Of a DNA stretch of 35,430 bases, positions 3,700 to 35,300 are shown in pieces. Source of the DNA: Jimgerdemannia flammicorona (taxonomy: Eukaryota). The stretch lies in the NCBI GenBank assembly GCA_003990765.1, contig RBNJ01000251.1, positions 1 through 35,430 on the forward strand. The letters are read 5' to 3'. The notes below the pieces were generated by a model. That model worked only from the letters and a program-made list of their open reading frames with translations. It was not told the origin of the DNA and did not search any database. A program made the position numbers and the translations under genes. Each line of letters starts with the position of its first letter. Within the stretch, counting starts at the first letter, position 1.

Positions 3700-6444
3700 A
3701 TTAGAAAAAAGTCCTAAATTTTCTAGATAAAGATGATGTCACTTATGCTGTCTGTGGGCAGCTATCATCTTAAGAATTGTGCAATGATTGAAAAGTAGAA
3801 CAACTTGTGAATTATAAACATTTACTGAAGCATTATATAGTACTTCAATATATATCTTATATATATTTCAACTATAGTGAAGGAGCAGATAAACTGGACC
3901 AGGCAGTGTTTGATAATGAAGGATTTATCAGAAACAGAAATAATATTATAACAGATATATATATATATTTGCAAACCCTGCACTTCTGCCCTCTATAGAA
4001 ATACCACACCTAGACTGATACTTGTAAATGGGCTCTGGGTTAGACATATGCCTGAGGAGTTTTGTGATTTGACATAGGCTGAGGAAAAGCTCATTGCTCT
4101 TACACATATATCAATCAAGATTTTCAAATACTATTCTCACTCTATTGCCAATGATGAAGCTATTTAGTGAGCAATCTACAGCAACATCATTATATTTCCA
4201 GCTGATACACATATTGTCAAGATACTACCACTCTCAGTTTAAAAGCTTTATGATCTCATCAAGGTGATCTTCATTGAAAAAAATAAATCATCCAAAGCAA
4301 TCATTGGAAAGATTTTTCTTGTACAAAAACAACATATGATTGATGCTCTAAAATGGCTTATTATGAACAATTTACTTTATAGAGAGATAGAACCAAATAA
4401 TGACAATATCAATACTCTACCAGACAATAGTATCTCCAATATACTCTATGATACTATCTCTGTTGGTGAAGACAAACAAGTCCATGATGCTGAGCATACA
4501 AGTTATGCAGTACTAGATTTGTTTAATATTGAGATAAATAATAATGAACTTGGATTTAATACTGAAAATAATGATGACATTAGACTGCACCTTCTATATA
4601 AGCAAAACCTAGGAAGTATGAGTACTTTCTTGGACCAGCAGCAGCCTGTTTCCAATGTTAACTGTGATGAAGATATATACATCATTGAAGGTGAAGCCAG
4701 TGGAATGACAGATACTAATGGCTCAGAAGTTATAATTGCTGAATGTTACCTCAATATCTTTTGTGCTCTATTCAATCGAGATAATGTAAACATCACATAT
4801 AAAGACCCAAACCTTATAGGTGAAGTAGAAACAGATGCATCACTTCAAGTTGGCTATGGACCAATATCTTTACTAAAGTACAATAATCTGAAACTGTTAA
4901 TGATGGCTTTTCCAACACTTTTCCCATATGGTGTTGGTAGCTTTGAAGAATTAGATTATACCTTCAAGGTATCATATCAGGCTCAGACTAAACATACTTT
5001 ATGTCAAGCATTACAGACCTTTACTAGACACTTATCTTTCTTCTTTGTTGTGCTTAATATTCTTCAGTGTTAGAGCATCTGTCATGAGGCCTACATTATG
5101 GTACAAAATGAAGATCTCTAAAGCAAATAGGCTATACTAACTAGTCTCATATTGAATGAGATGAGAATTGCATTATGTGCTGCTGGCAATTACCCACAAC
5201 AGTATATGGATGATCTATATATTGCTGAACTGCTCAGGGAGGTTAACATAGTAGGAAACTCTGTATCTAGTTCATAAGAAGAGCTCAGTATTTAAAGAAA
5301 TGAGATCTGGGCTCTAATGATCCAGAATGGTGCATCTCAATTCTTCATTACTATCAATCCTGCAGATATCCATAGTTCCATTATGCTGAAATTTGCAGAT
5401 AAACATTTCAATATAACAAGACTTGTATTTTCTGATGTTATCTATCATACTTAAGTAGTTGTCCGAGATTCTATTGCCTAAGCTCATTTCTTTAATTTCA
5501 TTATCAGAATATTTGTTAAGGATATTTAAGGATATGGCAATGGAGGGGGTGTCTTTGGTACTATAAAAGATTACTTTGGAATTGTTGAGACACAAGGGTG
5601 ATGTTCATTGCATATTCATATGATGGTGTAGATGGTAGGTGGCATCAATCCTACCACTATACATGAGTGAATACAAGATGATCTCATATTCCAATGATGT
5701 GTTCTTGACTATCTACAATATGTCATTCTATCTGATTTCGAATTTCCCATTATTGGAGCTCTTAGTGAACCTTCTGCAACTACTGTAAATAACCATCAAC
5801 TGCATAATAACATAGATATTAATTATGAGGATATTTTAGATGATTCAAAACAGTATGGTCTACCAGAGGAGATATATCTACTATACAAGATCCCAGACTA
5901 TCTTGAGGAATATATTCTGTATATATGGGATTTGCAGATGTGGACTGATGTAGTTAATGTTATAAGTCATATAAACATTTATTTCTACAGCCAGACCTGC
6001 AGAAAGAAAGAGACTCAATTTCACTTTCATATACTCTGAGAGAAGCTACCTTCAATCTAGAGATAGGTATAATCATAAACAAGTATCTTCATCTATGGGT
6101 TATTAACTTCAACTCATTCTATACTGTATTTTGCCAGTGTAATCATAATGTGAAGGCCTTATTCACATCAGGATTCAAGTGCCTGTCCTGCCTCTACTAT
6201 GTTATAATGTATCTGACAAAAGGTGGCTTGAAATGTTCAAATAAGTATGCAGTAAATACTGCCATACATGATCTTACCAAGTAAGGATTATATACTAGTT
6301 CAGATCTCTCAAATTAATTCTGGTGCCTACTCACTTGAATTTTGAGTATCAAAAACAGTATGCAGGAGTTCTCAGGTACACATACTGCTAACATCCACCT
6401 ACATTATAGAAACCAAGAAACACATTATATATCTATAATGTTTG
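3700..6444 (+). mobile_element. Helitron Rep region, degenerate, 5' part (left boundary uncertain, may extend to ~3055)
   Basis: (C)AVCG at ~3745; CKPCTSAL..P...NGLW...PEEF.DLT.AEEKLIA at 3970-4100 (DUF6570-like); AFPTLFPYGVG at ~4905; HUH Rep motifs FFITINPAD (5341), VETQG..SLHIHMMV (5584-5630) and YYVIMYLTK (~6195-6221). Confidence 0.85.
4264..5073 (+). pseudogene. Longest open segment of the Helitron Rep/helicase polyprotein
   Basis: ALKWLIMNNLLY and MAFPTLFPYGVG motifs typical of fungal Helitron proteins; flanked by stop-interrupted continuations. Confidence 0.75.
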
Positions 6445-6679
6445 TCAATGTTTTTGCCATAATGTCGATCTACGCTAGGGAGGCATAACTATACTACGTT
6501 TTTCGTAATGTCAACTATGCTATGCTCACGTGATGTCAATCTTCATGATAAAAACACCAATAACCCTGTGTCACCGAAATGACCATGCATCACCCCGAAA
6601 TCCTAGGAAAGAAACCTCAAATAAATGATCGATTGTTCTGTATTTGGGTGGAAACACACGGTATAAAAGACTGGCCCAA
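6445..6679 (-). repeat. Split direct repeat B2 (235 bp), copy of 6962-7196
   Basis: Direct alignment by eye; about a dozen differences, all transitions. Confidence 0.95.
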
Positions 6680-6713
6680 CCACTATGTATATATATGTAG
6701 GATGAGGTGGGTG

Positions 6714-6962
6714 GTAATGAAATGCATACGAATGTACGGAAGCGCAAAAGCGTAAGTGTAAAGCGCGTACAAAGTAATGTTGGGTGAATGGTAGAATTAC
6801 ATATAGAAGTAATGCGCCTACCGCGCTAGTACCAAAAAAGGAAAGACTACACCTGATTTAGAAACGCCTTAGACAAACAACGGCATTGAAACATTTTGGG
6901 TGCTATACGCCTAAGACCTTCCTGCATTCATTAACCTGTGGTCTCGAGCGAGCCCCCTCATT
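6714..6962 (-). repeat. Split direct repeat A2 (249 bp), copy of 11907-12155
   Basis: gtaatgaaatgc...ccccctcatt is present at both positions. Confidence 0.95.
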
Positions 6963-7196
6963 CAATGTTTTTGCCGTAATGTCGATCTACGCTAGGGAGG
7001 TGTAACTATACTACGTTTTTCGTAATATCAACTACGCTACGCTCACGTGATATCAATCTTCGTGATAAAAACACCAATAACCCCATATCACCGAAATGAC
7101 CATGCATCACCCCGAAATCCTAGGAAAGAAACCTCAAATAAATGATCGATTGTTCTGTATTTGGGTGGAAACACACGGTATAAAAGACCGGCCCAA
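6962..7196 (-). repeat. Split direct repeat B1 (235 bp), abutting A2
   Basis: tcaatgtttttgcc...ggcccaa, matches 6445-6679. Confidence 0.95.
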
Positions 7197-7376
7197 ATGT
7201 TATATATAAAATGTTTGGGATGATGATGTGTGGCAGTGTGAGTTGGCAGCGCCGAAAGAAAGAACTCGGCCCAAATGAAGTAAAAAGGGGGTTATGGATG
7301 TGGAAATGTGAGCAGAGTAGATGATAGAAAGGCGCTGAAGGCTTAATAGAAAGGCCACGCCCAATGTCAATGATAT

Positions 7377-7741
7377 GGCTGGTGTCGTGAGCCGCGCAGT
7401 TAAAACCGAGGGCAGGTGTCACGAATCGTGCGACAGCCAAGGAGCTGATTTTAATGAACCCAGCGATCGAGGGATAGAACTGGTGTCGTGAGTTACGTGG
7501 GGGTCCGAGTAGGCTAGTGTCGCGAGCTGCGCAATAACGAAAAGAAGGAGGGCTGGTGTCGCGAGCCGCGCAATGTCGGAAAAGGTTGGTATTGCGAACT
7601 GCATGGTGGCAAGAGGCTGAGGTGGGTGGATTAAAGGCTGGTGTCGCGAGCCGCGCGGTGATGTAAGGCCGATGAGGAGAGATAAAGGCTGGTGTCGCAC
7701 GCTGCACGGGACCCGGAATAAGCTGGTGTCGCGGGCTATGC
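7377..7741. repeat. Array of nine 21-bp repeats (consensus GGCTGGTGTCGCGAGCCGCGC) separated by unrelated 12-46-bp spacers
   Basis: Copies start at 7377, 7411, 7478, 7512, 7551, 7584, 7636, 7687 and 7721. Confidence 0.9.
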
Positions 7742-7767
7742 GGTAGAAAAAAAGGAACGGGAAATCG

Positions 7768-8775
7768 TTAACCACAAGTAATATGAGTAACAGAACAAGT
7801 ATTATGAGTTAACGAAGCCCGAAGGTGGAGAATATGAGAAATAGGCATGTGAATATAGCCTTTAAATGCCATGCTCTCCCACCGACCCAATATCTGAATC
7901 TCGTAATCAGATAAACCGGCCGCAGCGGCATCGGATGTTGCACCAATCCGAAAACTATGCCTGGCGTAAAGAAGCGGATTCAGACCAATCCGTGGAAGTA
8001 ACACGTGAAGACGACTAATGAGATAGGCCCGAGAGAATGATCGATTCGTGGAATGCCAGAACAGAGGGGTGTCGGGTGGGGCTGGGTGCGCCAGGTAAAG
8101 AAGGCGAAGTAAGGATACAACGCATGGCGCGGCAGGATCCGTTTTGGCAATAAAAAGTGTTGCACCCTGGCGAAACGGGTCTGTTTTAGAGGCTGGCAGG
8201 GTGAGCGTAATATGGGTGGGGTCAGCAATGCTAGGTTGAAAGACCACAGAGCCGCGGGACAGCTGGGAAATGGGATCGAAAGACCCGTCCCACGTAAATT
8301 CGCCGGAGCGAAGAAAGCTGATGTATGCAAGCGACATCGTGGTCGCAAGATGCAGATTGTCATAATCAGATAGCCGAAGCAAACTGATAAGACTGCGAAG
8401 AATACCGAGCGTGATAGGAAGCCGAGGTCGAGTTGGGCATATGCCTAGCCACCGCTTCACGCCACGCATCACTCGGGGAAGTTGGTGAAGACCGATGAAC
8501 GGATCGGCAAAACCGGAGTTGATGTGTAGAGAACGAACGGCTGAGAGGTAACGTTTGATTGTGGATAGTTGAAGCCGTTGCAAGGCCAAGCTACAGACCC
8601 ACCACATTAGCACCAGTTCGGATGCGGGCAAAGGCCCGCCGGAGGCATGATTACTGCCGTGGAGATTGCAGAATTGGAAGAAGCTGTGTTGTCCCGAAGA
8701 GTATGAGCAGCGCGTTGATTTTGCCAGTCCGAACCACAAAAAGAAGGCAACAACGGGTGGAAGTGCGGAATGCAA
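7768..8775 (-). CDS. Tyrosine recombinase of the Ngaro element (335 aa, uninterrupted)
   Basis: STIKRYLSAVRSLH (N-terminal binding domain), FLRSGE (R), SKTDPF (K), HSFRIGA (HxxR), LGRW (W), FKGYI (Y). Confidence 0.92.
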   Translation of the reverse strand: MHSALPPVVAFFLWFGLAKSTRCSYSSGQHSFFQFCNLHGSNHASGGPLPASELVLMWWVCSLALQRLQLSTIKRYLSAVRSLHINSGFADPFIGLHQLPRVMRGVKRWLGICPTRPRLPITLGILRSLISLLRLSDYDNLHLATTMSLAYISFLRSGEFTWDGSFDPISQLSRGSVVFQPSIADPTHITLTLPASKTDPFRQGATLFIAKTDPAAPCVVSLLRLLYLAHPAPPDTPLFWHSTNRSFSRAYLISRLHVLLPRIGLNPLLYARHSFRIGATSDAAAAGLSDYEIQILGRWESMAFKGYIHMPISHILHLRASLTHNTCSVTHITCG

Positions 8776-10448
8776 ACGATACCAATCGCGGTCAGGAGCG
8801 TCTGAGGGTAAGGGGCAAGACGACGGAAATGAGGAAGATCAGCATGGGATAAAGCATCAGCAATGCCGTTATCAGATGTTAAGATGAATATGGCGTGAAG
8901 TTGAAAAGCGTGATGTGCCATTTGAAAATAGAGTTGGCAGAGAAGTTCCAGCAGAAGAGGGTTGCGTGAAGAGCCTGAGTTGATAATAGCAATGACCACC
9001 TGATTATCAGAATGAAGCAATATACGGTGAAAACGCTATTGAGCGCCCCAGGTAGCAGCGGCAGCGACCATGACATAAAGTTCCTTGAACTGAATGTCGC
9101 GTGAGGCTATATCGGGAGGCCAGGGAGCGGAAAACCATTTGCTATTGAAATGTGCACCAAAGTCTTGGATCCCGCTGGTGTCCGTCCATAAATGTGCATC
9201 AGGCTCGTGGAACCATGCCACCGGATGTATAATGGAAATACCATTCGAGTGGGGTAGGAATTCGAGCCACTAACGAATGTCGGCGTAGAATTCCTCATTC
9301 AGTGAGATATGGAATGAGGCGTTGCCGGAAAGAAGGTCGATAAACCGCCGCAGGAATGGGCAGCCCGGCGGAATGATTTTACAGGCAAATGCCAAGGAAC
9401 CAATAAGAGACTGCAGTTGAGGGTGTGTACATAACGTGTGCGATAGCCACTGCTGAAGGGTGGTGAGCAATGTGTCAAGCTTGCCAAGAGGCAGGCGGGC
9501 TTCCATAGCCATTGTATCCAATTCAATGCCCAGAAAGATGAGTGACATTGTCGGGCCTTCGACCTTGCGCTCTTGAATCGACCAGCCAAGATGACGACAG
9601 ATGTCAAGAAGTAAACGTAGGTCGGAGAGGGCAAACGGCCGGAGCGGTGGCGAAACGAGGAGAAAATCGTCGATGTAGTGGATGAGCGCGCATATGTCGT
9701 GATGGTGGGCGATCCATGCGAGAAGTTCCGCGAAAAGGTTGAAAAGAAATGGTGATGAGGATGCACCAAAAGGAGCGAACCGATCGAAATAAAACTGCCC
9801 CAACCACTCGAAACCCAGCAACTCCCAATCCGTAGGATGGATGAGAATATGACAATATACATCGGCGAGGTTGACCTTTGATAGAAGACATCCCTGGCCA
9901 AAATGATGAACCAAGTCCAAGGCCTCGTCGAACTTAATGTAAGAGAGCCGGAAGGCATCAGTATCTATGCCGGCATTTACCGAATCGCCGTGACGGGGCC
10001 AAGAAAGGTCGTGAATACGATGCCATGCGCTATTAGAATTCTTTTTCGCGACGGCACCGAGAGGAGATGAGCGAAAGCATTCGAACAGAGGGGATGAGAA
10101 CGGGCCACAAATTCTACCGGCGGCGACTTCCCGCTCAATGTCAGATGTGATCGCTTCCGGGTGGTCAAGAGCTGAGTGATGATTATAGGACAGCAGGCAC
10201 CGACGAGGCCCATCAAAGCCGAGAAGAGCACCTTAAGTAATAGCGGCGATGGCAGCCTGAGCTACCTGTGGGGCAGGATACAACTGGAGCTCACGCGCCC
10301 ACGCGACAGGGCGAAGAGCAGAAGAAGGAAGAGGAAAATGACGTAGAATGTCTTGAGCAGCTTCGTTGAGAGGGGCGGTAAATGGGCGACAGAGTAGGGT
10401 ATTTGGGGCGGCCGGGGGTATGTTTAAAGAATAAATGGGGGCGAGTTC
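8607..10448 (-). pseudogene. pol: Ngaro reverse transcriptase + RNase H
   Basis: One frame: LRPVAWARELQLYP, SSPLGAVAKK, RIHDLSWP, APFGASSSPFLF, HYIDDF, FLGIELD, WTDTSG, IQFKEL, SDNQ, NGIADALS. In-frame stops at 10233, 9270 and 9036. Confidence 0.9.
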
Positions 10449-11900
10449 CTAGGGGCGAGACGATGGATTGTGGGAGCATCGATACCATGGATGATCACCA
10501 TTGCAGTGAGAGCAGGAATGCACATAAGGGCATCCTTTTCTATTGCACCCAGGATCCTTCATGGGTGATCCATCGAATAGAATGCTGTTGTATGCCCGAC
10601 AAGTAGACCGTTGAGAGGCTTTCTTGGTAGATGGAGCGGAGGAGCCATCAGTAAGACGTAGCCCCCATGGTATGTTGCGAGACTTGAAGGGCTTAAGTGG
10701 ATTAGATGTAGAGGTCGGAGTTCGCGGACGTTGATGTAGACTAAGGATCATAAAGAGGTCGGGGTCGCGCCGGGCCCAGTGCTCGCACCATACCAAAGAA
10801 ACACCATTGTTCGCGATCTCCGCCAGTCATTTTGTGTGAAAGGAGACATGATAATCGAGAAGCGCGGACCAATATGATGACGTTGATAGTAAAATAAAAT
10901 CCACGGCGTATGAAAAGAATGGAGTAGGATCGGTGAGGCCCGGGTACGCGTCATGAAGAACACTGAAATACGTAAGCAGGGCAGCGAGGAAAGCAGGGAC
11001 ATCCGGAAGATCTTTGATAAGGGATGGCGGCTTTCGAAGAATGATCCGGGCACCCGATTCGTCAAACGTTTCGATGAATTGAGCGTCAGGAAGACCACCA
11101 ATAGAAACGACGTTTCGCTCCAAGAAACGGCTGAGCGACATGGCGGTGAACGAATTGTCGACGACCGCGGCCAACAGCCGTTGATTAACGTGGGCGTATT
11201 TTAACGAGAGATTGATGCCTTGGACAATGGTATGGGCAGAGACGACAGAAGGAGGTATAGGGATAGACTCACCCTGGGGATTACCGGCAGGGCCGTGAAT
11301 GCCGGTGGACCGAACCGAAGGGATAGTCAGTAAGGGCTGAGATAAGGATGGGGATGCGAGAACCGCCGAAAGAGAGGCAGTAGTGCAATCGATAAAGGCT
11401 TGATCGATGATGGGAGACGCGTCCTGACCAGAAATGGCAGGAACTGCACTAGCCGGTGCCGCCGAAGTTACGATGTTGGGGTGAGAGCGTAAGAGCTGAA
11501 AAAGTTTGTCGAACTGATGGTCTTGCACGGATGTATGCTCTTGGAGCTGAGCAACACTGGCTTCGATGAAAACATCAGAGGCCGGTATGCTGAAGAAAGC
11601 TGGTCCGGCCGCCGTAGTGCTAGCAGGAGCCTTGGATGCGGCATGCACCAATAGATGCATGATTCGGCGGGGTGCGGAAGTAGAGTGATTAGGGAGGGTG
11701 GCGAGATAATCCACGAGGATAGCAACATCGGGGTTCTCGCTATCAGATTCCAGGTCGTCTTGCAGAAAACGGAGCACATGCTCGATGAAATTAACGTCCG
11801 AGCGGAAAGGGCAGGTGGTGGAGCCCAGGTCATATTGGCCCTTCGACATATGGGAAGGGTCATATCGATACAAAAGGCAGGAATTTGCGGAGAGGACCAT
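10449..11900 (-). pseudogene. gag: Ngaro gag-like ORF with C-terminal Cys/His zinc finger
   Basis: ORFs 10827-11900 and 10449-10796 are in frame, split by one TGA (probably ex-CGA). Ends in CRAYN..C....C.Y.H.C..C...H....C. Confidence 0.85.
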
Positions 11901-11906
11901 AGTAAT

Positions 11907-12155
11907 GTAATGAAATGCGTACGAATGTACGGAAGCGCAAAAGCATAAGTGTAAAGCGCATATGAAGTAATGTTGGGTGAATGGTAGAATTACATATAGA
12001 AGTAATGCGCCTACTGCGCTAGTACCAAAAAAGGAAAGACTATGCCTGATTTAGAAATGCCTTAGACAAACAACGGCGTTGAAACATTTTGGGCGCTATA
12101 CGCCCAAGACCTTCCTGCATTCATTGACCTGTGGTCTCAAGCGAACCCCCTCATT
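11907..12155 (-). repeat. Split direct repeat A1 (5' end of the Ngaro element)
   Basis: Matches 6714-6962; ends 7 nt upstream of the gag ATG. Confidence 0.95.
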
Positions 12156-12167
12156 GCGTTTGTCAAT

Positions 12168-12545
12168 TGTACCATTCATTCAATATATACTCCCTAAAAC
12201 AATTATATCAGAGCAAGCATATGCCCAGCTTTACAAATGAGCTCACATCTCTTTGGAATAGAAATAATGATGAACTAGTATATAATGAGTATAATGAACC
12301 TCTAATAGTTCAAGACTATTGACTATGTAGAGCTGATCTAGAGAAAATGTGTCTATATTTATATTATAGATGGATGATTAAGAAATATATTGAAGTGTCC
12401 AATATATCTCATCAACAGATATATAATTATCACTCTAATACATATAGTAATTTTCTGTCTGATCACCCTCAATATGGAAGATACCATATATGGTAATATG
12501 ATATTATGTTGATACTTATAGTATGAGGACCTACTATTTCTCACA
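12168..12545 (+). mobile_element. Helitron Rep region, continuation after the Ngaro insertion
   Basis: QDY*LCRADLEKMCLY at ~12311 and HPQYGRYH...GPTI at ~12463-12540. These motifs follow the HY.S..FVN motif (6423-6449) in fungal Helitrons. Confidence 0.7.
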
Positions 12546-19400: not shown

Positions 19401-21617
19401 TACACCTTTCACTGATAATATTAGGTGATACAAAACTCAGACAATACTTTCTGCAACGTTTTTGGTAAAAGGAGACTATCAATATAGACAGCAATGACTG
19501 TACTAGTGAGTATGTCAGCCAGGGGAGCAGCAGTGCCTTTGACTGGCAGCATGTCAGGAGGAGATGGAGGGATGGTTTGGGGATACTGGAGCCTTCTATG
19601 GTTGGTCATGGTGTTGGTGGTGGAGGGAGGGATGGATAGAGACAATAAGGAGGGGGGAGGACAACCTTTGCTGACAAGGTCAAGATGGAGAGAATGGTAT
19701 CTGGTCTAGGTAGTTGATTGGGACTAGAGAATGTGTTGATGACTGCAGTTGGGAGATAGGGAGGGGCCCACATGGGAGAGTTGGACAGTAGGGGGGGGGG
19801 GAGAGAGTAGGGGCTGGATATGTGACTACTGATGGAGCTGCAACTGGAGATCTGGAAAAAAAAATCCAGATATGATAGTTGTGGGCAGATTAGGACAGAG
19901 GGAGGGTATGAGGCCTGGAGACCTGGCAGATGGTATAACTGGTATGGTATCAGTACCATTACTCAAAAAGTCAAGGTTAGAATTTGCTGTCACATTATAC
20001 TTCTGAGACTTAACAGTGACTATGAGGATAATTTTGGGGTTAGTGGTATAGGAGGTAAAGGGGGTGGCTTCAGTGAAGTTCTTGAAGGGGAAAGAAGGAG
20101 TCAAGGTTGGATTTGAGGAAGAGATGTCATTGTTGGAGGCCTTGGAGAAGGGGGTAGTAGTGGGTGGAGTAGTGGTTTCTATGGCCAGATGCATACACTG
20201 GAACCCTCAAGTGGTGTAGTTGACATTGTTAGATCTTCCTATGATGTTGAGGGAGAGGGCCAGGGAGCTGATTGTGGAGGTAGTCAAGGAGTATGGGGAG
20301 ATCATGGATATCAGGTTCAGTGTCTGGGAGGATACTGAACTCTGGATCAGAGACATTGACATCAGGGTGAGGCTGGCTGAAAGAGAGAATATAGGGAAGA
20401 TAAGGGACTGGCCTGCAACTCTTAAGTGAGAACAAGTTGAGTGCAAAGTCTCATGGATAAAAGGAATGCCAGAGAAAGAGAAGGACTTGCTGGAGACTCT
20501 TGAGAATTTGGCAGAAGCAGTTGAGAGGAGGAGACTGGCTTGAAAGGAGTATGAAGCCAAGACAGTGGTGGAGATTGTAGATAGAAAGAGGATCAGGATG
20601 GACAAGGTGGCCTGGGAGAAGATATAGGGGAGGTGAATCCAGAAAGAGTTGTTAGAGAAGCTAGAAGGAGGTGTGGCAGATAGTGGGGCAGGAGAAGGTG
20701 GTACTGGACTGAGGGAGAGCACCTGGGCTGGGGAGTGTAGGATGGCTCAGGATGCGGCCCAGGGCAGATCAAGTGAGGAGGGACTAGGCAGCATAGTGGA
20801 GGATGCAGAAATGGGAGAGGAAGTATACCCTCAGTATGGTGACCTGGGTGGTGCAGGGGGGGAGGAGAAAATACTGGATGTACTGGAGAAGGAGTGGGAT
20901 GAGTCAGGAAGGAGGAGTGCTTTGGTGGACCCTGTGGTGGGGGTCAAAGGAGTTGCTCAGGGTGTTGCCAAGGCAGTGGATGAAGAGAAGTAGCTATGGG
21001 AGACTCTGGAGGGAGTGGCAGCTGAGGAGCTGGGGAGAGAGAACTTCTGGATACTAAGCAATAGGCATTGGGAGGAGATTTTGCATGGTGAGGAGGTACC
21101 AAGAAAGATTAGGAATGAGATTTTGGTAGTGCTCTTGGAGTCAGTGGAATATCAAGTTGATGATCAGAGGGAGGAGGCCCTCTGAGGGATGGTAAATAAC
21201 TGGGCAGAGTACTTGTGGGGTTCAAGAAAGGGGTTAGAGAAGTGGAGAGTAGTATGCATGGATTATTAGGCAGAAATAGAGGTTGTGGATGGGGTGGAGT
21301 GTTAGGAAATCCTAGAAGCACTGGATGTTCAGACTGTAGTAGAGGATGAGTTGGAGGCAGAGTGGTACTTGGAACTGACTAATGATAAGATGAGTATGGA
21401 ATACTAGACTAGGCTCTCACTATAAAACATTATTCAATATAAACAGTATAACTAAAATCTTTTCTTTAAATGTGAATGGATTGAGAGGAGTAGTACAGTG
21501 AAGGGCTGACTAAAGAGACTGGATGTGGATCTCTTCTTACTGCAGAATGTACAGTATGAGATAGATGTGGACTTATAGAACTGGACTAGAGAATGGGGTG
21601 GGGCAGCTTGTGGACTG
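19400..21617 (+). mobile_element. Degenerate L1-clade LINE copy 3, 5' part (ORF1 and start of ORF2)
   Basis: ORF1 homologous to copy 2 (KEYGEIMDIRFSVWEDTELWIRDIDIRVRLAERE), stop at 21407. ORF2 ITKIFSLNVNGLRG from 21439; interrupted by the LTR element. Confidence 0.82.
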
Positions 21618-23735
21618 TGTAATAGAGTTGCTTTTTAAGGTAACCATTATGTAGTTCTGGAAAGGTTTTCTGGAGGTTCTGGATATTCTGGAAGACCGTT
21701 TTCTTATGGTCAAGATCAATTTCATATGGAGTACATCCTCTATACTTTTTGATTTCAAGTTTGGGTTGACGTCTCAACCAAAGTCCTTTTTCAGACTAAT
21801 TCTGGATGTTCAGGATTTTCCATGTTTCAGGAAGTTCAAAAAACTAAGACCAGCTTAGTTGAATTGGCATATCACTGCAGACAATACCCAATTAGGAAAT
21901 TTCATAACAGGGTTAGGAGTGGGACCTAATGGGGAGCGGATTTACTTAAGAGTGGTTTGTGGGTTATTGAATAGGTTTATTCGCTATTCATGATATTGCT
22001 ATACTAGGAGTAGTTGTGTGAAGGGATATTGTGGGGAAGTGCTCAGGAGTTGTATTCAGATTGTTCAGGTCTGAGATTCTGAGATCTGGGGGAGGGGGTA
22101 TTTATACTAGTGAGGGGCTATCTGGACTATGCTAGATATGGATATAGCACTAAGTGCCTTGCTGAGTCGGAATGCAGTCACGTAGTACAAGTGTGATCTG
22201 ACATGTCAAGAGATTGTCTGACTGCTGAGTTAGTTCACAGTCATGTCGTATAAGGCTAATCTAACTATACTATGACTGCTAGGCTATTTATGGTTTAGGC
22301 ACTGTCTGGGTAGTCCTTGATGACATCACCATCAATTGCATCATCTCTGATGAAGTAGTTGTCTAGGAAGAGTGGTTTGTGGATTACTTCTCCTTATTCA
22401 CTAAGGTAATAATACATTGGAACTTCATCTCCATCCCACAAGATAGCATCATCTGTCTCATATGCTGGATAAGATGTTGGTGGGCAAAGAAGGGGTGCAT
22501 CATCTTCACTTTCATCAGATTCGCTGTCTGCATATCTTCTGTAGGTTACAGCACTATGAGTCATGGGGTTGTAGTAAGCTGGTGGCTGTAGTTAATGTCA
22601 CTCATACTTGGGTGGTGGAATGGTTGGTTCGATCTCGAGGGTTGTCTGGAGGTACAGGTTGTGTTCTCCGGTCTCTTCATTGTAGTTGAAGTAATCGGGG
22701 GTGAATGCAGGTTAGTATTCATGCCAGTGGTCATTTTCCCAATAAGTCTCAATTTTTTTTTTTCAAGTGTCAGCGGTCCCAAAGGACTTGACTCCCAATA
22801 AGTCTTGTATGCTATCATAAATTGTTGTAAGTTCATTGGCAAGGTTGGCAGTGTGATCAGGGTTGGCAGAGATCCTTGGCTAGAGGTCATGTCAGTGTCA
22901 GAGAGATCATTGTCTTCTGCTTTGTCTTCATCGAAGTAGATTATATCATAGATGTCCTTCCTGGCATATCCAACTTGGGGCATTTGCAGAATATGATCAT
23001 TGGGGTATAGGAAGGTTCTGTCTGTGGTTTTGATGTACTTGAGGTACTTATGGTTGAGTTCTTATATTATGTCATCGATTTGGCCATAGGACAGGGTAGC
23101 AACCATTTCAGCTATGGTAACTCAGAGGCGGGGAATAACAGTGCTATACTTGTAGAAGAGTTCTCGATGTTTGTAGGTGATGAGCTTCTGGTGTTGAGAC
23201 ATCTGGGTAATGTCTGTATCATAGTGGTGTTCGATCATGTCTTCCAGAAGGCGGCTGATCTGATAGTAGCTTGAGATTTGTCTGATTCGGTGGGCCTTGC
23301 TAAGCATGTTCAGAGCATTCCATCAGGCTTCCATAAAGTAGAGGGGTGCTAGACTATGGATATTCATGAGGGGCAGAGGGGGTGTGGCTCGGTTGACAAT
23401 GGCATTCCAAATGTCAGCGCGGATATGGGTATAGATCTCAGTGGTCATGTTTGTGTGTTTGGAAGTTGTGGTTGCTGTTTGTTTTGGTTCTCTGATTCAT
23501 ACATCTTGGTGCTCAGTATATATGCATTTGGTCCTGATTGGTAAGATTCCATTTGTGTGAATCTTGTATTCTGTGACTTCATATTGACTCAGCATTGTGC
23601 ACTGTGACTTTGGTTTGACTCAGCTTCATGATCAAGCAGGTGATTTCCAGATTTGTTCAGAGGTCATGTGTGATTTCAGTGGCTTGTTCAGAGGGTGACA
23701 TGTAATTTTAGTGGCTTGGGGGTTGTACACTTACA
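21618..23735 (-). repeat. 3' LTR (2118 bp)
   Basis: Direct repeat of 30263-32322; preceded on the minus strand by the PPT. Confidence 0.95.
22295..23448 (-). pseudogene. LTR-embedded ORF of unknown function (~385 codons), 3' LTR copy
   Basis: MTTEIYTHIRADIWNAIVNR...DYPDSA*; interrupted by transition-type stops (TGA/TAA) and one slip in an A-run. Confidence 0.7.
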
Positions 23736-23746
23736 ACTCTCCCCTT
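23736..23746 (-). other. Polypurine tract (AAGGGGAGAGT)
   Basis: Immediately 5' of the 3' LTR on the minus strand. Confidence 0.85.
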
Positions 23747-24157
23747 CTTAGCTTTTGACATTCTCATCGGGACCTTCTAATTTTGTTTTAGTGTTGTTAC
23801 ACCATTTGGGAGGTCAAAAGTCTGGTGAAGTCCATTTTTCTCAGAAAGTGGCATGCTCATAGTACAGTTGCCTAACATGTTGGATTCACATGTAAAAGGG
23901 TCATATGTTCAATGCCATGCACCAGAAGTGATTCTGACATCATTCACTGCTGGAGAATTTCCTCTAAGAAATCTTCTTAAATATCTATGCCTTGTTTCCC
24001 ACTAGTGGTATGTGGAGAATAGGCTTGCTTTCAGTTTTGCTATTTTTCCAAAGGGTCAGTATTCTTGTCTTATTTTGCTGAGTTCTTGATTTTCAATAAT
24101 TATAGTGTTCAGGAGGATAATATATAGTATGTATGGATAGGTGCAGAGTATTTGGTT

Positions 24158-29900: not shown

Positions 29901-30244
29901 TGGATTTGTGGTGCTGACAAAACTCTTGTTAAGAAGAGTAAAGAAGACTTCAATAAGACCTTCTTCATCGTGACTTACTAGGTATAGTGCAAGGAGTTTG
30001 GTGAATAGGGTTTCGCCTATTTGCTGGTTTAACTGGAGTACTTCTTTCTTTGAATGAAGTTTGTCCCACTTGTTGCAGGTGTGGAGGTCAAATTGGCCTT
30101 GTATGTCAGGTTCAATTCACTACAGATTGTCAGATAGTTCAGGATAAATTCCAGTTCAGAGGTTGGGCTTTATATGAACTTGTAGGAATTCTCAGAAGGG
30201 GTTGTAGCAGGATGAGGAAGTATCTTGAAGTGGAATTGGATTGT

Positions 30245-30259
30245 AAACCACTGCTACCA
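30245..30259 (-). other. Primer-binding site TGGTAGCAGTGGTTT, initiator-Met-tRNA-like
   Basis: Starts with TGG 3 nt after the 5' LTR; TGGTAGC matches 3' ends of known eukaryotic tRNAiMet. Confidence 0.7.
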
Positions 30260-30262
30260 AGT

Positions 30263-32322
30263 TGTAATAGAGTTGCTTTTTAAGGTAATCATTACATAGT
30301 TCTGGAAAGGTTTTCTGGAGGTTCTGGATATTCTGAAAGACTGTTTTCTTATGGTTAAGATCAATTTCATATGGAGTACATCCTCTATGCTTTTTGATTT
30401 TAAGTTTGGGTTGACATCTCAACCAAAGTCCTTTTTTAGCCTAGTTCTGGATGTTCAGGATTTTCCATGTTTCAGGAAGTTCAAGAAACTAAGACAAGCT
30501 TAGTTGAATTGGCATTTTGCTACAGACAATACCCAATTAGGAACTTTCATGACAGGGTTAGGAGTGGGACTTAATGGGGAGCAGATTTACTTAAGAGTGG
30601 TTTGTGGGTTATTGAATAGATTTATTCACTATTCATGATATTGCTATACTAAAAGTAGTTGTGTGAAGAGATATTGTGGGGAAGTGCTCAGGAGTTGTGT
30701 TCAGATTGTTCAGGTCTGAGATTCTGAGGTCTGGGGGAGGGGGTATTTATACTAGTGAGGGGCTATCTGGACTATGCTAGATATGGATGTAGTACTAAGT
30801 ACCTTGCTGAGTCGGAATGCAGTCACATAGTATAAGTGTGATCTGACATGTCAAGAGATTGTCTGACTGCTGAGTCAGTTCACAGTCATGTCATATAAGA
30901 CTAATCTAACTATACTATGACTGCTAGGCTATTTATGGTTTAGGTACTGTCTGGGTAGTCCTTGATGACATCACCATCAATTGCATCATCTCTGATGAAG
31001 TAGTTGTCTAGGAAGAGTGGTTCGCAGATTACTTCTCCTTGTTCACTAAGGTAATAATACATTGGAACTTCGTCTCCATCCCACAAGATGGCATCATCTG
31101 TCTCATATGCTGGATAAGGTATTGGTGGGCGAAGGAGGGGTGCATCATCTTCACTTTCATCAGATTTGCTGTCTGCATACCTTCTGTAGATTACAGCACT
31201 ATGAGTCATGGAGTTGTAGTAAGCTGGTGGCTGTGGTTCATGTTGCTCATACTTGGGTGGTAGAGTGGTTGGTTCGATCTCGAGAGTTGTCTGGAGGTAC
31301 AGGTTGTGTTCTCCAGTCTCTTCATTATAGTTGAAGTAATCAGGGGTGAATGCAGGTTGGTATTCATGCCAGTGGTCATTGTCCCAATAAGTCTTATATG
31401 CTGTTATGAATTGTTGTATGTTCATTGGCAAGGTTGGTGGTATGATCAGGGTTGGCAGAGATTCTTGACTAGAGATCATGTCGGTGTCAGAGGGATCATT
31501 GTCTTCTGCTTCATCTTCATTGAAGTGGATTATATTGTAGATGTCCTTCATGGTATATCCCACTTTGGGCATTTGCAGAATATGATCATTGGGGTGTAGG
31601 AAGGTTCTGTCTGTGGTTTCAATGTACTCAAGATACTTGTGGTTGAGTTCTTGTATCATGTCGTCGATTTGGCCATAGGATAGGGTAGCAACCATTTCAG
31701 CTGTGGTAACTCAGAGATAGGGAATAACAGTGCTATACTCATAGAAGAGTTCTCGATGTTTGTGGGTGATGAGCTTCTGGTGTTGAGACATCTGGGTAAT
31801 GTCTGTATCATGGTGGTGTTTGATCATGTCTTCCAGGAGGTGGCCGATCTGATAGTAGCTTGAGATTTGTCTGATTCAGTGGGCCTCACTAAGCATGTTC
31901 AGAGTATTCCATCAGGCTTCCACAAAGTAGAGGGGTGCTAGACTATGGATATTCATGAGGGGCAGAGGGGGTGTGGCTCGGTTGACAATGGCATTCCAAA
32001 TGTGCACAGATATGGGTATAGATCTCAGTGGTCATGTTTGTGTGTTTGGAAGTTGTGGTTGTTGTTTGTTTTGGTTCTCTGATTCACGCGTCTCAGTGCT
32101 CAGTATATATGCATTTGGTCCTGATTGGTAAGATTCTGTTTGTATGAATCTTGTGTTCTGTGACTTCATATTGTCTCAGCTTTGTGCACTGTGACTTCAG
32201 TTTGACTCAGCTTTGTGATCAAGCAGGTGATTTCCAGATTTATTCAGAGGTCACATGTGATTTCAGTGGTTTATTCAGAGGGTGATATGTAATTTCAGTA
32301 GCTTGGGGGTTGTGTGCTTACA
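30263..32322 (-). repeat. 5' LTR (2060 bp)
   Basis: Direct repeat of 21618-23735, lacking 56+2 bp. Confidence 0.95.
30940..32035 (-). pseudogene. LTR-embedded ORF of unknown function, 5' LTR copy (251 aa still open, 30940-31695)
   Basis: Same protein as 22295-23448; 2-bp deletion near the start and two shared TGA stops. Confidence 0.7.
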
Positions 32323-35300
32323 GACTGGGTGGGTGGGCATTCTGGTTCAAAAGGGGATAGAGGACATTGGGGATATTGGACATTGGGGGAGTAGATTGGT
32401 GTGGGGAGTATGGAAGAGGCCTGGGTGGAACCCTTTGACTATTGGATCATATTATTGCCTGGCTGAGAGGGGGGAACACATAAATTGGATCAGAAACTTG
32501 AGGAAGACTAGTGTTATGGGTGAGGTAGGGATTAATTGCCTGGGGGGTAATTTCAACATGGTATATGATAATAGGTAGGATAGGACTGATGGTGGAAGAG
32601 GAATGAGAGGCAGAAGTGGTAGGTTGGATGATTGGATGGAGATTGAGAGGTTGAGCTCCTTGGTTGACTCAGGGTGACAGTTTTGGGTAGATCACTGAAT
32701 TTATACCCACTGAGTGGCAGGGCTGGGCTCCAGGATTGACTAGGTGTTGACAGTGGAGTACTGGGGAGTAGATGTCTGAAACATGCTGGAGGTGGTTTGG
32801 TGCCCATACTTGGATCACTGGGGTCTGATAGAGAGTGGGAGATTTGGGAGAAGTGGGGATAGGCCTGGACATTGACAACTGAATTCTTCTTTGTTGGAGG
32901 ATGGTTCCTTATGGATAGACTGAGAGGTGGAAGTTATTGAGAAGATTGGTAGGTGGCAGGAGCAGGGATTGGTAATTGGGGATCACTGATAGTGACTGAA
33001 ATTGAGTGCTCAGAGGTACTGGAGGGAGGCAGGGAAAGGAAGGAGTGCTCAGTAGTGGCAGCAAGTGCAATGGGCTTTACAGAGATTGGCAGTGCTTCTG
33101 GGGAGGTGGGCAGAGTCGCTGGAGGATTGGGGGTGGCTGATTGGTGAATTCTGTAGATACAAAAGAAAGTAGATGAGCTAAAGGAAGTATTAGGAATGGA
33201 GAAAGAGGTTTAGCTGAAGGGGATGGTGGCAAGGTTGCAGTAGCAGGGGTTGGAGGAGGGGGAGAGGCCCACTAGATTTCTTTCATAGTTGCTCCAAGCT
33301 CAGAGAACTAGACAGCAGTGGGATGGTATTTTGGATGAGGATGGAAATTTATAGAGTGAAGAAGAAGGGGGTGAGAATGTCTGGAATATTGAACAGCATT
33401 TGGAGGATTGGTATCTGGACCCAGTATTGGGCCTGGGGATACTAGGCAATCCAGTGTAGGGGGAGGAAGTATGTAAGGTCTTGGCTTCAACAAGTAAGGG
33501 GACAGCTCCAGGAGAGAATGGGCTTCTCTGGGATTTTTGGAAGAAGATAGTTGGGGTGGAGATGGTATTGGAGGAGATGATAGTGATGTATAGTGAGGTC
33601 CTTCAGTCTGGAACTTAGATTGAGAGCCAGCACCTAGGGCTGGTCTCCTTGCTCTATAAGGATAAGGGGAGAAGAGAAGATTGGAAGAACTGACAACTGA
33701 TCATGCTCCTTGACATGGACTGCAAGCTGGTGACAAAGATCTTAATAACTAGACTGTAAGGGATCACTCAGCAGATGCAAGGAGTGGAGCAGAGGAGATT
33801 TGTTAGTGGTCAGTTGATCCAAGATGGAACTGCCTGAGTTCATGGGGTGATTAAAGAGGCTCAGACAGCTGGGGTTGATGGCCAGTTAGTATTTCTAGAT
33901 CAGGAGAAGGTATATGACAGGGTGAGGAGGGTCTGGCTAGAGAGAGTGCTGAAATATGTGGGAGTTCTCCCAGAGTTCAGGAGGTCATTAATCAGCCTAT
34001 TGGAGAACAGTCAAGCAGGATTAATAGTGAATGGGCACAGGGGTGTGACTTTTCCACTAGGTTGCAGGGTGCTGCAAGGGGATCCTTTATTACCTATCCT
34101 ATATGCCCTTTCCTTGGAGCCCCTATTGGACAGGATTTGGCATTGAATTGGGGTTTTGGACATTTTGGAGATTAACTGGAAGGTTGGGGCTTTTGTAGAT
34201 AATATGGTGGTTGAACTGAGTTATTAGCAGATGTAGAGGAATTAAGAATGACTGTGGAATGGTATGATAGGAGCTCAGGTGCTTGACTCAACTGGCACAA
34301 ATGTGAGACTCTGGTGCTAGGTGGCAGAATAGTTGGTGGTGATATGATTGGAACAGTGGTTCTAGCAGGAGAACTGGTCTGGTACTTGAGAATATACTTT
34401 TCAGTATATAGGTCCCTCTTGCTCCATATATGGTGGGAACAGCAGCTACTAGTATGGAGGAATGTTCTCTTGAGGTGGGGTGGTTGGTATATATTCTTGA
34501 CAGGAAGGATGATAGTGCTGAATGTGTAATGGCTGCCAAAGCTGTGGTATATAGGGTATTATCTGACTTCTCAGCATGGGTGATCAGGTAACTTCTGAAG
34601 ATGACAAGATCGTGGATTTGGGCTAGATAGTAAAGTCAGATAGGCTGGAAGGTTCTGACTCTGCCTGTTGATAGAGGCAGACTGGGCTTAGTAGACTTTA
34701 CCAAGTGCCTATATTGCCTGAGAGTATGGTGGCTGAAGAGAGTGAGTGAGTTGAGAGGCTGGGAGTAGGTACTACTCATACAGAGGGTGTGGGAGGTCTG
34801 GTATTCCCCTCATGGAGCAACTGGTGATCTGCTTGCAATGGTGGCCATGGATGGGAGTAAGAGGATATATTATAATGGTTTTTGGTAGGGAGTGGTGGAT
34901 AGTGTAAGAAGAATTGAACTTCAGTAGAGGAGTGATGAGGGGGTAGAGGACTGGGGACCACAGATGTGGAGATGAAACTGGCTACTGCTGGGAGGTATAT
35001 TGAAGGAGGACTTTCAGCTTGGTGATGGAATGGAATATATGAGGGGACTCAGGGGGGATGTGTGGCCTAAAGCATGGCAAAGGGTGGGGATTGGTGAGAA
35101 GTGGGACTGGAATAGTATTTGGCCTTAGAGTGAGCAAGTGATGTGATGGCTTCTCCTCAATTTCTGGGTGGTATGGTGGAGGTTCCTAAGGTGGAATGTA
35201 ATGCTGAAATATCAGTCAGGGCACTTGGGGGCAGACAGCATGTTTGAGTATAAGGAATACATGGACATTGGCCAGGAGGGAGGAGTGGTACAGATGTCTG

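Follow-up and report, generated by a model that had tools for sequence, protein, structure and literature searches.

What function, if any, is served by a row of short conserved repeats, separated by unlike spacers, directly behind the last coding frame of a retrotransposon? Such a row occupies positions 7377–7741 of the window (the whole stretch of DNA analysed here, 35,430 nucleotides). The initial annotation had proposed three readings: a set of recombinase or Gag binding sites, a multi-hairpin RNA signal, and a cassette array built by the recombinase.

The element carrying the array

The array is located on the minus strand, between the stop codon of the tyrosine recombinase (YR) and the split direct repeat B1 of a dead Ngaro retrotransposon of 5.7 kb. 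In the sense direction, which is the minus strand, the element runs from repeat A1 (12155–11907) through a Gag-like ORF, the reverse transcriptase (RT), RNase H (RH), the YR (8838–7768) and the array (7741–7377) to B1, A2, and B2, which ends at 6445. The split direct repeats follow the order A1-ORFs-B1-A2-B2, and RT/RH is followed by an overlapping tyrosine recombinase, both of which are features of Ngaro elements.

11907–12155, minus strand: split direct repeat A1, 94% identical to A2
10449–11900, minus strand: Gag-like ORF1 (assigned by position), broken by a stop, with a Cys/His-rich C-terminus
9270–10232, minus strand: reverse transcriptase (PF00078, E=1.2e-9), frame broken by stops at both ends
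8607–9035, minus strand: RNase H-like part, in another frame than the YR and overlapping it (PF13456, E=0.03, below the cut-off)
7768–8838, minus strand: tyrosine recombinase frame, 356 aa from stop to stop, with the stop codon at 7768–7770
7377–7741, minus strand: array of ten 21-bp units and spacers that are pyrimidine-rich in the sense direction, in the 3' non-coding region
6962–7208, minus strand: split direct repeat B1, 93% identical to B2
6714–6962, minus strand: split direct repeat A2
6445–6691, minus strand: split direct repeat B2

PF00589 was matched by 14 of the 28 aligned YR members, the copy in the window itself being without a match. The Gag-like ORF1 had no Pfam match, and no homologue was found for 10830–11900. 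A Dam methyltransferase after RH gave no match in the frames scanned, which were fewer than all six; the YR overlaps the end of RH. A1 and A2 differ at 15 of 249 positions and B1 and B2 at 17 of 247, nearly all of the differences being transitions. These differences, together with the stops in gag and RT, led us to conclude that the window copy is dead; it has decayed neutrally since its insertion. The flanks are nearly CpG-free (CpG observed/expected, 0.03–0.05).

An identical 10-mer, resembling a short target duplication, is present at both ends of the window copy (12166–12157 and 6447–6438, minus strand). Among the loci L001–L030, the B end is nearly constant with varied flanks beyond it, and L003, L019, and L020 have a single B end. 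The 3' end of the element adjoins an ORF region (about 4243–6440) that is decayed and depleted in CpG and has a DUF6570 match; it resembles a remnant of a Helitron Rep. The window also holds two copies of another repeat (21400–24000 and 30000–32500), about 90% alike and 8.6 kb apart, and the stretches near 1000, 18100, and 21400 are related to this repeat.

Structure of the array

All nine 21-bp units of the initial annotation were recovered, starting at 7377, 7411, 7478, 7512, 7551, 7584, 7636, 7687, and 7721 and separated by spacers of 13, 46, 13, 18, 12, 31, 30, and 13 bp. They show 0–7 mismatches to the unit at 7551, to which the unit at 7636 proved identical, as had been reported, and 26 nt indeed lie between the YR stop codon (7768–7770, minus strand) and the array. 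Alignment of the genomic copies revealed that the 46-bp spacer contains a tenth unit in decayed form (7444–7465), which had been overlooked. Numbered from the YR, all on the minus strand, the units are as follows.

7721–7741, minus strand: unit 1, nearest the YR, with a slot-specific variant common to family B
7687–7707, minus strand: unit 2
7636–7656, minus strand: unit 3, canonical
7584–7604, minus strand: unit 4, diverged in family A only
7551–7571, minus strand: unit 5, canonical
7512–7532, minus strand: unit 6
7478–7498, minus strand: unit 7, arms AACT/AGTT, the source of most of the co-variation signal
7444–7465, minus strand: unit 8, decayed
7411–7431, minus strand: unit 9, arms largely unpaired
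7377–7397, minus strand: unit 10

Since the tenth unit lies inside the 46-bp spacer, the basic period is 32–39 bp. The 30- and 31-bp spacers each contain the 3' end of a unit (1–3 mismatches in 9 nt). The decayed tenth unit and these unit ends in two long spacers indicate that the array descended from a tandem monomer of about 34 bp. The short spacers of family A (the family of the window copy) show no resemblance to each other (p=0.71). The possibility that the initial annotation had named as refuting, that the spacers are decayed parts of one longer tandem unit, was partly realised, through the unit fragments in the long spacers and through the short spacers of the sister family B, which are related to each other (p=0.009).

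As the sense strand of the element is the minus strand, the transcript would carry GCGCGGCUCGCGACACCAGCC. The core motif on this strand is about RYY-CGCG-DYA, and the spacers are pyrimidine-rich. The units share one orientation, are clustered, and are conserved above the spacers, as expected of an array of docking motifs. Outside the array, the plus strand of the window contains a single further 21-mer at 7 mismatches (11346) and none closer. Genome-wide, a decay-tolerant 16-nt pattern of the unit found 181 matches, versus 1 for the backwards control. The array was not reported by TRF, and a search of 6300–12300 against Rfam returned no match at E<=5. A coding reading of the array was rejected: the units start in different frames, and the 215-aa frame past the YR stop has no Pfam match. 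In the last codons of the YR (7825–7773, minus strand), there are two near-tandem 21-bp pieces with unit-profile scores of 10.6 and 2.1 bits, which may be older decayed units.

Copies and related families

A genome search with positions 7200–7900 gave 40 matches for the 40 scored of 48 candidates, and the best 30 were aligned as family A. The spacers are identical in kind across all 30 aligned copies, and the array is thus a fixed trait of the family. G>A and C>T account for 1219 of the 1410 differences among these copies. Within the family, units (0.017) and spacers (0.018) have undergone equal non-CpG change; dead copies would be expected to show this equality, and it has no bearing on constraint. 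In 2 of the 30 copies, precisely one unit has been lost along with its spacer (34 and 51 bp).

The YR search of the genome returned 151 matches, of which 40 of the more distant ones (44–66% identity) were examined and sorted into families. Family B shares this array but has 11 units, the additional one being a local duplication; among its 7 copies, one gained a unit and two lost one. Locus L144 has one unit fewer than the majority of its family. The spacers are orthologous between families A and B. Their lengths are unequal in 6 of 9 orthologous slots, and the units remain 21 bp; only the spacer lengths are quoted here, because the MAFFT alignment of A and B placed two indels at unit edges.

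The related motif extends to two further families. Family C carries up to three related units behind the YR, and the A/B unit profile gave 20 matches in all 11 family-C loci; the reverse strand and YR coding DNA gave 0 each, and shuffles gave 0.2. In family F, related units occur in a module of about 135 bp, of which L148 has one copy, L227 two, and L229 and L232 three each; this module was amplified separately from the A/B array. In both families the sequence between the units no longer aligns to family A by blastn, and the motif persists. A tree built without named reference elements from the YR fragments of 43 chosen loci and of the window (44 in all, none dropped) unites families A, B, C, and F on a single branch with support 100/99. 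The placement of the array in 3' non-coding sequence of a Ngaro element, and its presence in relatives, bear out that part of the initial annotation.

None of the loci of families D (14), E (5), and G (1) matched the A/B unit profile; the motif is therefore not required by all Ngaro elements. These families carry different repeated units at the same place behind the YR, and repeats were flagged in 15 of the 40 other YR loci of the genome. Higher-order arrays of their own were seen behind the YR in L143–L179 (family D), L163–L178 (family E), and L180, and, when CpG decay is taken into account, the family-E units resemble short inverted repeats. Short tandem arrays with the unit end ACACCAGCC occur in L356 (990–1170) and in L357 (minus strand); these arrays have no YR in the vicinity and do not match the element by blastn.

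Beyond this genome, 80 metagenome YR loci were collected, of which 75 had enough downstream DNA. Repeats were flagged in 3 of the 75, by a scan that needs near-identical 11-mers and in loci chosen as YR, whether Ngaro or not; the unit profile gave 2 isolated matches in the 80. In the metagenome locus L103 (3985–4266), six hairpin units about 50 nt apart lie directly behind the YR, in an array that reaches the contig end. Their sequence is unrelated to that of the window units. Viral contigs contained no YR relative and no exact unit. Prokaryote genomes contributed at least 120 stretches, and the 80 loci listed have one 17-mer match each; these were taken as chance matches.

Apparent constraint on the units

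Transversions were used to compare the units with their surroundings, because they are unaffected by C-to-T decay. Family A (15 rows) was set against family B (8 rows), which provides one family pair and small counts, with site classes chosen when the array was already in view. The nine good units had no fixed transversion (0/187), and the decayed unit had 2/21. The corresponding counts were 6/150 in the spacers, 7/161 at four-fold sites and 7/553 at first and second positions of the YR, 4/29 between the stop codon and the array, 8/158 between the array and B1, and 15/231 in B1. Taken together, the ten units showed 2/208 versus 25/498 at the pooled neutral-like sites (p=0.009), where 9.9 would be expected in the units given their GC/AT make-up. 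Against the spacers alone, with the decayed unit included, the p value was 0.07.

A deficit of this kind could also result if the units had been homogenised among themselves, but four units have slot-specific variants retained in both families. The survival of these private variants indicates that the four units were not homogenised, and they also lack fixed transversions (0/84, p=0.04). When all non-CpG substitutions between A and B were counted, units (20/134) and spacers (26/135) did not differ (p=0.42), in a comparison in which the family-B calls are noisy owing to heavy C-to-T decay. Several units are degenerate in family A. The 9-nt "loop" within the unit is conserved as well as the arms.

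On the transversion counts, the units are more conserved than neutral-like sites and under apparent constraint. The array is real and not CRISPR-like, and it was probably functional in the active lineage.

Putative docking sites read by sequence

The motif is kept more faithfully than the DNA between its copies, which suggests that the array is probably a row of putative protein docking sites. With a confidence that stops just short of even, we favour the following explanation. The unit would be an old cis-acting motif of one Ngaro clade; tandem duplication of the unit with its spacer would have raised it to 10–11 copies in the A/B lineage, where selection would have retained the units while the spacers drifted. 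The result would be a one-way row of candidate docking sites, read by sequence and not by fold, and several sites would raise avidity. The likeliest reader may be the element's own Gag-like protein acting on the transcript, in packaging or template choice, or else a CGCG-binding protein on DNA. The Gag-like ORF ends in a Cys/His-rich stretch, and fingers of this type bind RNA. A host DNA-binding protein is an equally good candidate for the CGCG core, and such binding would be methylation-sensitive. The binding-site array proposed at the outset fits units that are conserved above both spacers and neutral sites. The data establish where the array lies, that it is passed on as a fixed block, that it grew by duplicating neighbouring units, that the units diverge less than neutral sites, and that the motif spans the clade with separate amplifications; the docking step itself we infer.

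Alternatively, the array may be a neutral by-product, that is, a hypervariable 3' array generated by template switching or slippage during reverse transcription, with the units kept alike by repeated recombination. We regard this as possible but doubtful. The losses of a unit plus spacer in 2 of 30 family-A copies, like the unit changes in family B (a gain in one and losses in two of its 7 copies), are of the kind that this process would produce, as are the unit ends inside the long spacers and the related short spacers of family B. Families D, E, and G have unrelated arrays at this position, repeats were flagged in 15 of 40 other YR loci, and among the distant YR loci only 3 of 75 were flagged. 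Such arrays are described for Ogre/Tat LTR elements in the available text of PMC7004042. As in those elements, the array lies between the last ORF and a terminal repeat, the unit number is variable, and the monomer is family-specific. A purely neutral array, however, should leave the whole monomer without selective constraint, whereas the units show a deficit of transversions (p of about 0.01, in one family pair), including in slots where private variants survive in both families. In addition, the motif survives in families C and F although the sequence between the units no longer aligns to family A. If the neutral reading holds, the finding does no more than add YR retrotransposons to the elements known to carry Ogre-type 3' arrays.

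Structure-based and recombination-based alternatives

The units might instead act as small hairpins, with GGCT/AGCC arms and a 9-nt loop, whose structure is read on RNA or on first-strand cDNA. This is unlikely, although the dyad in the units is suggestive. Five compensatory double changes were found in family A in the register first described, compared with at most 2 in any other, and arm permutation gave p=0.024 (family A) and p=0.025 (family B) for Watson-Crick pairs. One family-B unit shows a T-A to C-G change, and the six hairpin units behind the YR of L103 have weak co-variation (39 of 500 shuffles were as high). On the other side, the p value of arm co-variation was 0.09 for the transcript strand (0.04 for the opposite one), and it was 0.19–0.33 when the unit at 7478 was left out. 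In sense RNA, 34 of 40 arm pairs are able to form. Folding of the whole array is at shuffle level (z=+0.28 sense, +0.73 antisense), and single units folded as DNA are likewise at shuffle level, with the proposed fold in 1 of 9. In the window copy, another register co-varies equally well, which we attribute to CpG decay. A CGCG/CGCG hairpin was scored in the window copy but not at the family level, in a comparison whose base calls were partly wrong through a loose CpG-restoring rule and in which A/B orthologues counted twice.

The compensatory arm changes are transitions only, as the initial annotation had pointed out. Its statement that variants keep the pairing applies to the unit at 7478 (AACT/AGTT), which carries most of the co-variation, but less well to those at 7584 and 7721, which need G-T wobble on the plus strand and have A-C mismatches on the transcript strand. 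The multi-hairpin signal that it suggested is weakly supported: Watson-Crick co-variation is found at p=0.02, but the value is 0.09 on the transcript strand and 0.19 without 7478, and folding is no better than that of shuffles.

A second alternative is that the units are accessory (arm-type) sites for the YR on a circular DNA intermediate, by analogy with the arm-type sites of lambda integrase. Where repeat A starts, some 13 nt away from the B|A junction, the minus strand matches the unit core at 11 of 14 positions (6949–6936) and 10 of 14 (12142–12129), the former being the best such match outside the array in the 5.7-kb element. Nevertheless, the profile score of this match is just 4.9 bits, and 10 of 14 positions are also matched at two antisense coding sites. 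The array is 415–780 bp away from the junction, and its spacer lengths vary by 1–4 bp and so keep no strict helical phase. We therefore consider this role very unlikely.

A CRISPR- or integron-like cassette array, with spacers added by the recombinase, is scarcely credible: the look of conserved repeats and unlike spacers in a single copy, and nothing else, speaks for it, but no new spacer appeared in 30 copies, which share their spacers with each other and, as orthologues, with the sister family; the unit number shifts by local duplication and deletion, the extra family-B unit being a local duplication; and the spacers have no exact match elsewhere in the window.

Comparison with known systems and implications

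Motif arrays in non-coding regions of transposable elements are already known from Ogre/Tat, gypsy, and VANDAL elements. TOC1 and kangaroo-1 also contain internal tandem repeats. Like the present element, members of the Ngaro superfamily have the A1-ORFs-B1-A2-B2 arrangement, a gag-like ORF, and RT/RH with an overlapping YR, and unlike it they are described without an array behind the YR in the available text of PMC3783388, PMC9210276, and PMC8547959. The word "tandem" occurs 0 times in the main texts of these three papers as available, and "minisatellite" 0 times in two of them. In the literature covered by title and abstract opening, with the founding Ngaro papers and Repbase outside its scope, no array behind a Ngaro YR was described. 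In amphibian Ngaro elements, an SGNH hydrolase ORF occupies the place behind the YR, according to the available part of PMC9210276.

The 3'UTR repeats of Ogre/Tat elements resemble the present array in lying behind the last ORF, in having family-specific monomers, and in gaining and losing units, as far as the text of PMC7004042 at hand describes them. In the present array, by contrast, one portion of the monomer shows apparent constraint throughout a clade and the remainder drifts, and the host is a YR element, not an LTR element. The gypsy insulator, with 12 Su(Hw) sites in 340 bp, is likewise a UTR of similar length with about a dozen short conserved motifs and unlike spacers, but it is a 5' UTR with AT-rich spacers and a known host protein (excerpts of PMC2374998). 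Our array is 3', has pyrimidine-rich spacers and a CpG-rich motif, and would have a binder that is still putative. The VANC target motifs of VANDAL elements share the single orientation, the tandem build-up in non-coding regions, the family specificity, and a genome that methylates transposable elements; VANDALs are, however, DNA transposons with a dedicated anti-silencing gene in the accessible part of PMC5735166, and no such gene was seen here, where binding is putative. The likeness to CRISPR and integron attC arrays is superficial, as the present array shows no spacer acquisition and no polarity and grew by local duplication. The integron integrase is a tyrosine recombinase too.

To our knowledge, the way in which Ngaro/DIRS elements choose and prime their RNA is unsolved. 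A bolder generalisation, which we consider rather unlikely at present, is that the stretch from the YR to B1 serves Ngaro elements in general as a signal platform, in which a clade-specific multivalent motif or hairpin array, co-evolving with Gag or the YR, would be the packaging or priming determinant of split-repeat retrotransposons. Repeated units occur behind the YR in all families of the genome with an intact region (A–G), and the L103 array fits such a platform, but the 3 of 75 distant loci do not favour it.

The available text of PMC3783388 reports that no Ngaro element was found in early-branching fungi. If the host is an early-branching fungus, the Ngaro families described here widen the known range. 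With regard to the array itself, a short motif under apparent constraint, in a natural series of 1–3, 10, and 11 copies and with clade-specific replacements, would offer a concrete handle for binding and mutagenesis tests.
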